Assembly: GCA_964518475.1 (NCBI GenBank)
Contig: CAZFGR010000001.1
Coordinates: 288,001-352,000, forward strand
Direction: 5' to 3'
Length of the DNA stretch: 64,000 nucleotides
DNA from: an uncultured Nitrososphaerota archaeon
Lineage (GTDB): Archaea > Asgardarchaeota > Njordarchaeia > Njordarchaeales > Njordarchaeaceae
Below the pieces are notes generated by a model, which searched no databases, was not told the origin of the DNA, and saw only the letters and a list, made by a program, of their open reading frames with translations. Below are positions 57,276 to 57,329 of this stretch, piece after piece (the stretch's first letter is position 1; each line of letters opens with the position of its first letter). Both the position numbers and the translations under genes were made by a program.

Positions 57276-57329
57276 TCCGAACTTAAAGGACTCATCATTA
57301 ATATAATCAGAGATCACCTCCTTCTTCAT
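57276..57329 (-). ncRNA. Box C/D sRNA F (16S anti-SD tail and central pseudoknot strand)
   Basis: ATGAAGA-AGGAGGTGATCT-CTGA-TTATATTA-ATGATGA-GTCCTTTAAGTT-CGGA; guides antisense to GAUCACCUCCU and AACUUAAAGGA. Confidence 0.87.

Follow-up and report, generated by a model that had tools for sequence, protein, structure and literature searches.

Among the closest described counterparts of the locus reported here are sRNAs of N. equitans, an organism for which Seistrup et al. 2017 (PMC5389701) demonstrated 16S rRNA methylations with mass spectrometry and RiboMeth-seq. In that organism Am1534, located in the anti-Shine-Dalgarno (anti-SD) sequence, depends on Neq sR13, a dual guide that also directs Am1408 in helix 44 (h44), and Gm1530 depends on Neq sR20, which has a second guide for 23S rRNA (PMC5389701). 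In the proposal of the same authors, Neq sR13 stands in for the missing KsgA by timing how the 16S 3' end folds (PMC5389701), and the idea that dual guides with distant targets serve as folding chaperones has likewise been published as a hypothesis (PMC4644070). The modification next to Am1534, Cm1533, has been experimentally detected in the 16S rRNA of Ignicoccus hospitalis, where its guide was given as "presently unknown" (PMC5389701). The I. hospitalis sRNA Iho sR305 has been verified by RNA-seq with 430 reads, its targets being entered as "NP NP" (Dennis et al. 2015, PMC4644070, Additional file 1). For a second, central region of 16S, Sac-sR101 of S. acidocaldarius and Mka sR114 of M. kandleri carry the D guides GUCCUUUAAGUA and AUCCUUUAAGUG, which are predicted to address the equivalent of U912 in the same register as the sRNA described below (PMC4644070, Additional file 1).

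In the present study, we describe a dual-guide box C/D sRNA gene of a hydrothermal-sediment, Asgard-affiliated Njordarchaeales archaeon (a 2.33-Mb metagenome-assembled genome, MAG, of 121 contigs and 38% G+C), the product of which is very probably a dual methylation guide for Cm1533 and Um912. The gene occupies positions 57276-57329 on the minus strand of the window, that is, of the whole stretch of 64,000 nucleotides that was analysed. It forms a unit of about 60 nt in the canonical layout and lies antisense within a 270-nt gap between two plus-strand genes. Read from the sequence, its parts and surroundings are as follows:

57354-57367, minus strand: TATA-like A/T-rich element aaattaatctatac, a putative archaeal promoter
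57331-57334, minus strand: 5' strand of the terminal stem, GUGC, then G; pairs with GCAC at 57272-57275
57323-57329, minus strand: box C, AUGAAGA (consensus RUGAUGA; position 5 is A, not U)
57311-57322, minus strand: D' guide AGGAGGUGAUCU, 12 nt, antisense to the 3'-terminal 12 nt of 16S, GGAUCACCUCCU; N+5 position C1533
57307-57310, minus strand: box D', CUGA
57299-57306, minus strand: D'-C' spacer UUAUAUUA, 8 nt
57292-57298, minus strand: box C', AUGAUGA
57280-57291, minus strand: D guide GUCCUUUAAGUU, 12 nt, antisense to 16S A908-A918, AACUUAAAGGA; N+5 position U912
57276-57279, minus strand: box D, CGGA (consensus CUGA; a one-base deviation)
57272-57275, minus strand: 3' strand of the terminal stem, GCAC, then UA; also seen in the MFE fold
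57264-57269, minus strand: T6 run, a likely archaeal transcription terminator
54669-57230, plus strand: type IA topoisomerase gene, flanking the gap
57500-57919, plus strand: 139-aa ORF, flanking the gap

The boxes, both 12-nt guides and the coordinates that the initial annotation had given all proved exact when the minus strand was read again. The TATA-like element lies at about -20 to -33 counted from the first base of the terminal stem, and the T6 run is a likely terminator, given that oligo-T runs terminate transcription in archaea. With such a stretch upstream and the T6 run after the stem, it is plausible that the sRNA is expressed from a promoter and terminator of its own.

Several observations point to a genuine C/D sRNA. 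A regular-expression scanner for C/D'/C'/D units returned 45 in the genome versus none in a Markov-shuffled copy, and this result, together with an order-wide sequence pattern lacking control matches (see below), argues that the sRNA is more than a chance arrangement. The genome encodes all three RNP proteins, namely L7Ae (95.5 bits), Nop5 (229 bits) and fibrillarin (322 bits), with the Nop5 gene adjoining that of fibrillarin, and DNA of the region is present in sediment and hydrothermal-vent metagenome runs. Internally, the RNA has the D' and C' boxes (CUGA and AUGAUGA) and guides of about 12 nt (12 + 12 nt) of an archaeal C/D sRNA. The elements of the terminal k-turn are also in place: the 4-bp GUGC/GCAC stem is retained in the MFE fold of the sRNA, and position 5 of box C covaries with position 2 of box D, being U/U in 27 units and A/G in three. 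At the same place the relatives have different terminal stems (GGC/GCC in G005; GGCC/GGCC in L100 and L096).

The Rfam search assigned the sRNA to no family at gathering score, the best being sR14 with 22.6 bits against a threshold of 38. At relaxed thresholds, nine of 11 weak matches were C/D families, eight overlapping the unit and six end to end, and it was the boxes, not the guides, that produced the matches. As a separate matter, a self-masking fold, with AAGGA (D' guide) paired to UCCUU (D guide), was considered and rejected as not significant, the z-score of the whole RNA being -1.64 and 13 of 200 shuffles folding equally well.

Neither 16S nor 23S rRNA is assembled in the MAG; therefore, the complementarity was measured on the 16S fragment (L012) of a genome of the same genus (G005), and it depends on this congener and on both target sequences being conserved almost universally. 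The fragment reads ...gcggcuGGAUCACCUCCUaaag at its 3' end and ggcugAAACUUAAAGGAAUUGg across 907-922. The D' guide forms 11 Watson-Crick pairs and one G-U pair with the final 12 nt of 16S, which places its N+5 target at C1533 (E. coli numbering), the C of GAUCA just 5' of the CCUCC anti-SD core. For the D guide, 11 Watson-Crick pairs to A908-A918 place the N+5 target at U912. On this same-genus 16S both guides thus have the at least 9-10 contiguous pairs and the paired N+5 position expected of a guide, and no comparable 23S site was found for either of them in the congener. The initial annotation had taken the guides to be antisense to the 16S 3' tail and to the 908-918 element, with the +5 rule leading to C1533 and 912; the pairing was borne out on L012, and the re-derived numbering gives C1533 and U912.

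The second site (908-918) was placed via the 907-926 primer site, and positions 916-918 are the 3' strand of the central pseudoknot (h2). The D-guide duplex includes G916-A918, and its target segment consists of the 5' strand of the end of helix 27 (h27) and the h2 strand, h27 being a published methylation hotspot. In the 16S fragment the C1533 and U912 sites lie 617 nt apart, the widest spacing among the dual-16S guides of the genome. The tail was numbered with the E. coli ruler given in Additional file 4 of Dennis 2015 (PMC4644070). As a side observation on the same end of 16S, helix 45 reads ccguaccGGAAggugcgg in Njordarchaeales (L012 of G005 and L006 of G010) and in an Ignisphaera MAG (L199), whereas most of the other archaeal 16S sequences fetched have ccguaggGGAAccugcgg, with the stem pairs swapped and the GGAA loop kept.

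Taken as a dual methylation guide, the sRNA would work through L7Ae bound to the C/D k-turn and to the C'/D' k-loop, a Nop5 dimer bridging both L7Ae-bound motifs, and two copies of fibrillarin, which would methylate, for each guide, the 2'-OH of the rRNA nucleotide opposite the fifth position upstream of box D' or box D. With 12 pairs to the 16S tail, the D' guide would yield Cm1533, and the D guide, with 11 pairs to A908-A918, would yield Um912. Because A908-A918 is buried in the mature subunit (in h27, and in h2 at 916-918), the D guide would have to act on unfolded pre-16S; the tail is single-stranded and should be reachable for the D' guide at any time. A hyperthermophile would probably profit through protection and pre-organisation of the exposed 3' tail.

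Conservation within Njordarchaeales follows the tail guide. The sequence GAGGTGATC followed by a D'-type box occurs in all 14 genomes of the order, nearly all of which have exactly two such sites, versus 0-1 matches per strand per genome for the reversed control. A 22-nt pattern of box C, tail guide and box D' was found in 13 of the 14 and was absent from 386 other genomes of the same phylum; its reversed control had no matches in the 400 genomes. Two types of sRNA were extracted from the order, type 1 (that of the window, in the C1533 register) and type 2 (in the U1532 register). Type 1 is present in 13/14 genomes, the one without it being only 66% complete, and the core of its D' guide, GGAGGTGATC, is invariant in these 13 of 14. 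The spacer between D' and C' varies in sequence and ranges from 3 to 8 nt.

The D guide of type 1 tells another story in each genus. In the genus of the window's archaeon (g1) it reads xUCCUUUAAGUx, directed at U912, in all six members carrying the gene. In g2 it is other or degenerate: that of G013 has a 12/12 match to the 23S sequence GAAAGCCGGGUU, and those of G010 and G012 are A/T-rich or without an assigned target. In g3 it is a decayed h27-like sequence, and in g4 an unrelated one. Of the guide pair whose conservation in relatives the initial annotation had named as a check, the tail guide was found throughout the 13 genomes, and the U912 partner only within the genus and not in the sister genera. 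That an identical tail guide stands beside a 23S-directed, unrelated or degenerate partner in these genera implies that it works without a pseudoknot-directed partner. Genomic position is of no help in defining orthology here, since the topoisomerase neighbour is common only to the window's genome and G002, and in g2 the topoisomerase adjoins the other paralog.

The same genome holds further C/D sRNAs aimed at the ends of 16S:

contig C1:356384-356437 (window-equivalent 68384-68437), minus strand: paralogous C/D sRNA of type 2 (locus L193), with 16S targets U1532 and A915
contig C7 near 24262, minus strand: third tail-directed C/D sRNA, ggggc-GCGAUGA-CCUAGAGGAGGUGAA-CUGA...GUGAUGA-...-gcccc
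contig C1:175357, outside the window, plus strand: C/D sRNA with D' guide AGGAUCAACCGU, antisense to the 16S 5' end CGGUUGAUCCU

The paralog lies 11 kb from the window's sRNA, 4.4 kb past the end of the window, and has the layout AUGAUGA-AGAGGUGAUCCU-CCGA...AUGAAGA-GAAUUCCUUUAG-CUGA. It sits within the 5' leader of the eS27 gene (a 30S ribosomal protein), some 20 nt ahead of the start codon, an arrangement that is kept in two genera of the order (eight genomes); altogether, type 2 sRNAs placed in the eS27 leader were found in ten of the 14 genomes. Their D guide is mostly A-rich and degenerate (8/10), and GAAUUCCUUUAG, directed at A915, occurs only in the window's genome and its closest relative, G002, so this guide appears, from its distribution, to be a recent gain common to these two. 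Since it targets A915 here, it makes the paralog a second sRNA of the genome aimed at the same two 16S segments. The sRNA on contig C7 has a 9-nt pairing with the tail that puts N+5 at C1535, where the CCUCC core begins; the other guide of this sRNA is unrelated. Hence three sRNAs of one genome are predicted to target U1532, C1533 and C1535 of the 16S tail. The sRNA at C1:175357 addresses a segment containing the 5' strand of the central pseudoknot, so that each of the two pseudoknot strands is targeted in this genome, though by different sRNAs.

The window contains additional C/D sRNAs. A tandem pair on the minus strand (18762-18818 and 18923-18975, about 100 nt apart) has related D' guides, UGUGUACCACCU and GUGCACCACCUC, which address adjacent 16S positions with a one-nucleotide offset; judging from the guides, the pair at 18762-18975 looks like a duplication followed by guide sliding. 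A canonical sRNA on the plus strand (61403-61451) reads AUGAUGA-AAAACCCCUUCU-CUGA-UCA-UUGAUGA-GGGUUCCGAGUA-CUGA, and its D guide has a 10/10 match to the congener 23S. The window also encodes, as the initial annotation had noted, Dim2/Pno1, in the form of an aDim2 KH protein (TIGR03665, 206 bits versus a cut-off of 114.2; 11948-12448, plus strand). At a distance of 45 kb it has no linkage to the sRNA, and it was rejected as genomic context for it.

Outside the order, the same unit of C box, tail guide and D' box, with full C' and D halves, was present among the matches listed from GTDB species genomes, in MAGs labelled Desulfurococcales/Desulfurococcaceae, Sulfolobales, Thermoproteales, Ignisphaera and, once, Nitrososphaerota, a distribution that fits hot-habitat lineages rich in sRNAs. 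Among these listed matches the tail guide is always in the D' half, while each lineage has its own partner guide, which in Thermoproteales is GGAUAGCAGA... In one Desulfurococcaceae MAG the partner has nine contiguous pairs to the cognate 16S 5' end. The Ignisphaera partner has eight contiguous pairs only, and the partners of the Sulfolobales type fit the 16S 5' end only with a 1-nt bulge. An exact-complement search in those Thermoprotei genomes returned the sRNA genes themselves and one unrelated site only. A coupling of tail guide and 16S 5' end in Thermoprotei may thus be noted as a weak lead from sequence comparison.

A possible, though unlikely, extension of the methylation reading is that proposed in the initial annotation, namely that a single sRNP holds the 3' tail and the 908-918 element of the same pre-16S simultaneously. 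Such a clamp would hold back formation of the central pseudoknot and hide the anti-SD until late assembly, in the manner of U3 or as proposed for Neq sR13. The wide spacing of the two sites would suit it, as would the retention of the guide pair in 6/6 genus members with the gene and the existence of the paralog directed at the same segments (U1532 and A915). In addition, the D-guide duplexes of both sRNAs cover 916-918, the 3' strand of the pseudoknot, and the Desulfurococcaceae MAG mentioned above joins a tail guide to a guide for the 16S 5' end. However, the sister genera join the identical tail guide to a 23S-directed (G013), unrelated or A-rich degenerate guide, the D guide is degenerate in eight of the ten type-2 paralogs, and the third tail sRNA has an unrelated second guide. 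Moreover, the U912 guide is an ancient module that elsewhere stands beside a guide for a neighbouring site, as in Sac-sR101, whose other guide, GAACUCCCCAGU, would pair with a nearby 16S position. The window's sRNA and its paralog may also share ancestry or have swapped guides, in which case they do not count as independent instances. Finally, the genome encodes KsgA/Dim1 (188.5 bits versus a cut-off of 171), which is absent in N. equitans, so that a substitute checkpoint would be unneeded here. The comparative record, then, cuts both ways and supports the clamp only in part. The concept had already been published as a hypothesis (PMC4644070, PMC5389701), and an assembly checkpoint of this type is not new, one of the same kind having been proposed for Neq sR13 (PMC5389701). 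A stronger version, in which both paralogous sRNPs would be U3-like chaperones that tether the 16S tail to the 3' strand of the pseudoknot, delay its closure and hide the anti-SD until release, seems to us improbable.

There is also the thought that the gene is decaying, and that AUGAAGA and CGGA, each one base off consensus, prevent RNP assembly, the paralog and the third tail sRNA having taken over. These boxes could indeed weaken the terminal k-turn, and other members of the genus have AUGAUGA and CUGA there. Nevertheless, G002 and the unrelated MAG L100 show both changes at once, and the window's genome often combines AUGAAGA with CGGA or CCGA as a C'/D' pair. Furthermore, both guides are still perfect and the terminal stem is the strongest in the genus, which leaves decay very improbable.

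Still less credible, with just a slight chance of being right, is a role as translational regulator or decoy, with the exposed GGAGGUGAUC of the sRNP pairing with the free anti-SD of the mature 30S subunit in competition with the Shine-Dalgarno (SD) sites of mRNAs. The tail is single-stranded in mature subunits, and genes of these genomes do use SD sites of the GGUGA type, as seen downstream of the type-2 sRNAs. But even distant lineages keep one and the same register to box D' (N+5 = C1533), which a methylation guide needs and a decoy does not, and Cm1533 exists in Ignicoccus (PMC5389701). As for a small ORF in place of an sRNA, although a perfect SD (GGAGGTGATC) stands 13 nt before ATGATGAGT..., whose ATG opens a minus-strand frame of 21 codons, this is next to impossible and was rejected, because the frame after ATGATGA differs in length and sequence among relatives (G001 has 10 codons, whereas G005 and G006 read through for long distances), conservation ends exactly at box D, the conserved parts are the boxes and the 12-nt guides, and the weak Rfam matches are nearly all C/D families spanning the whole unit.

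We thus return to the dual methylation guide and its place among the known systems. The resemblance to U3 suggested by the initial annotation is an analogy only. U3 is an RNA of 200-330 nt with boxes A/A'/B/C; its pairing partners are the 5' ETS and the 18S 5' end, and it is not known to guide methylation. What the two have in common is membership of the box C/D class and complementarity over the 3' strand of the central pseudoknot (the equivalent of 916-918), and to this extent the suggestion held. It did not hold for boxes, length, pairing with the 5' ETS and 18S 5' end, or the non-guide role, for the window's sRNA is a standard C/D'/C'/D methylation guide of about 60 nt that pairs with the 3' tail. 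Nor does eukaryotic 18S have a 3' tail serving as anti-SD, unlike the 16S targeted here, and the Rfam search gave no U3 match for the sRNA.

The likeness to Neq sR13 goes further, both being dual-guide C/D sRNAs that address the anti-SD tail and a distant central 16S site, with a proposed timing of small-subunit folding. Yet the tail is addressed by the D guide in Neq sR13 (A1534) and by the D' guide here (C1533), the register being shifted by one nucleotide. The partner site also differs: it is A1408 in the h44 decoding site for Neq sR13, and the second guide of the window's sRNA pairs with 908-918 (U912) instead of with h44 1405-1415. In addition, the methylations of Neq sR13 were verified by mass spectrometry and RiboMeth-seq, whereas those of the window's sRNA are predicted from sequence. 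With this design already published for N. equitans, the finding alone leaves the current understanding of C/D sRNAs unchanged. As far as could be found, however, this is the first anti-SD-tail guide sRNA described for a Njordarchaeales genome. It comes with a tail guide held fixed across the order and recurring as the same unit in Thermoprotei MAGs, and with an indication that the last dozen nucleotides of 16S can be the target of three separate sRNAs in a single hyperthermophile. Two sRNAs co-targeting the tail and the pseudoknot strand also offer a concrete, testable case for the long-standing, unproven idea of rRNA-folding chaperones. If the chaperone reading of the paralogs were true, they would represent an archaeal functional forerunner of snoRNA-timed small-subunit assembly.

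The remaining comparisons concern one guide each. Sac-sR101 and Mka sR114 share the U912-directed D guide, and the other guide of each is not a tail guide. Conversely, Iho sR305 carries GGGAGGTGATCA directly after box C, in the same register as the window's D' guide, but differs in its very degenerate boxes (GAGGAGGA and GGCU) and its unrelated second guide. This tail guide in the C1533 register makes Iho sR305, in our own and hitherto unpublished reading, a candidate guide for the orphan Cm1533 of Ignicoccus. The un-annotated sRNA family described here likely accounts for that published modification. It supplies a plausible guide family for Cm1533, beside the anti-SD core, and turns Iho sR305 into a testable candidate.
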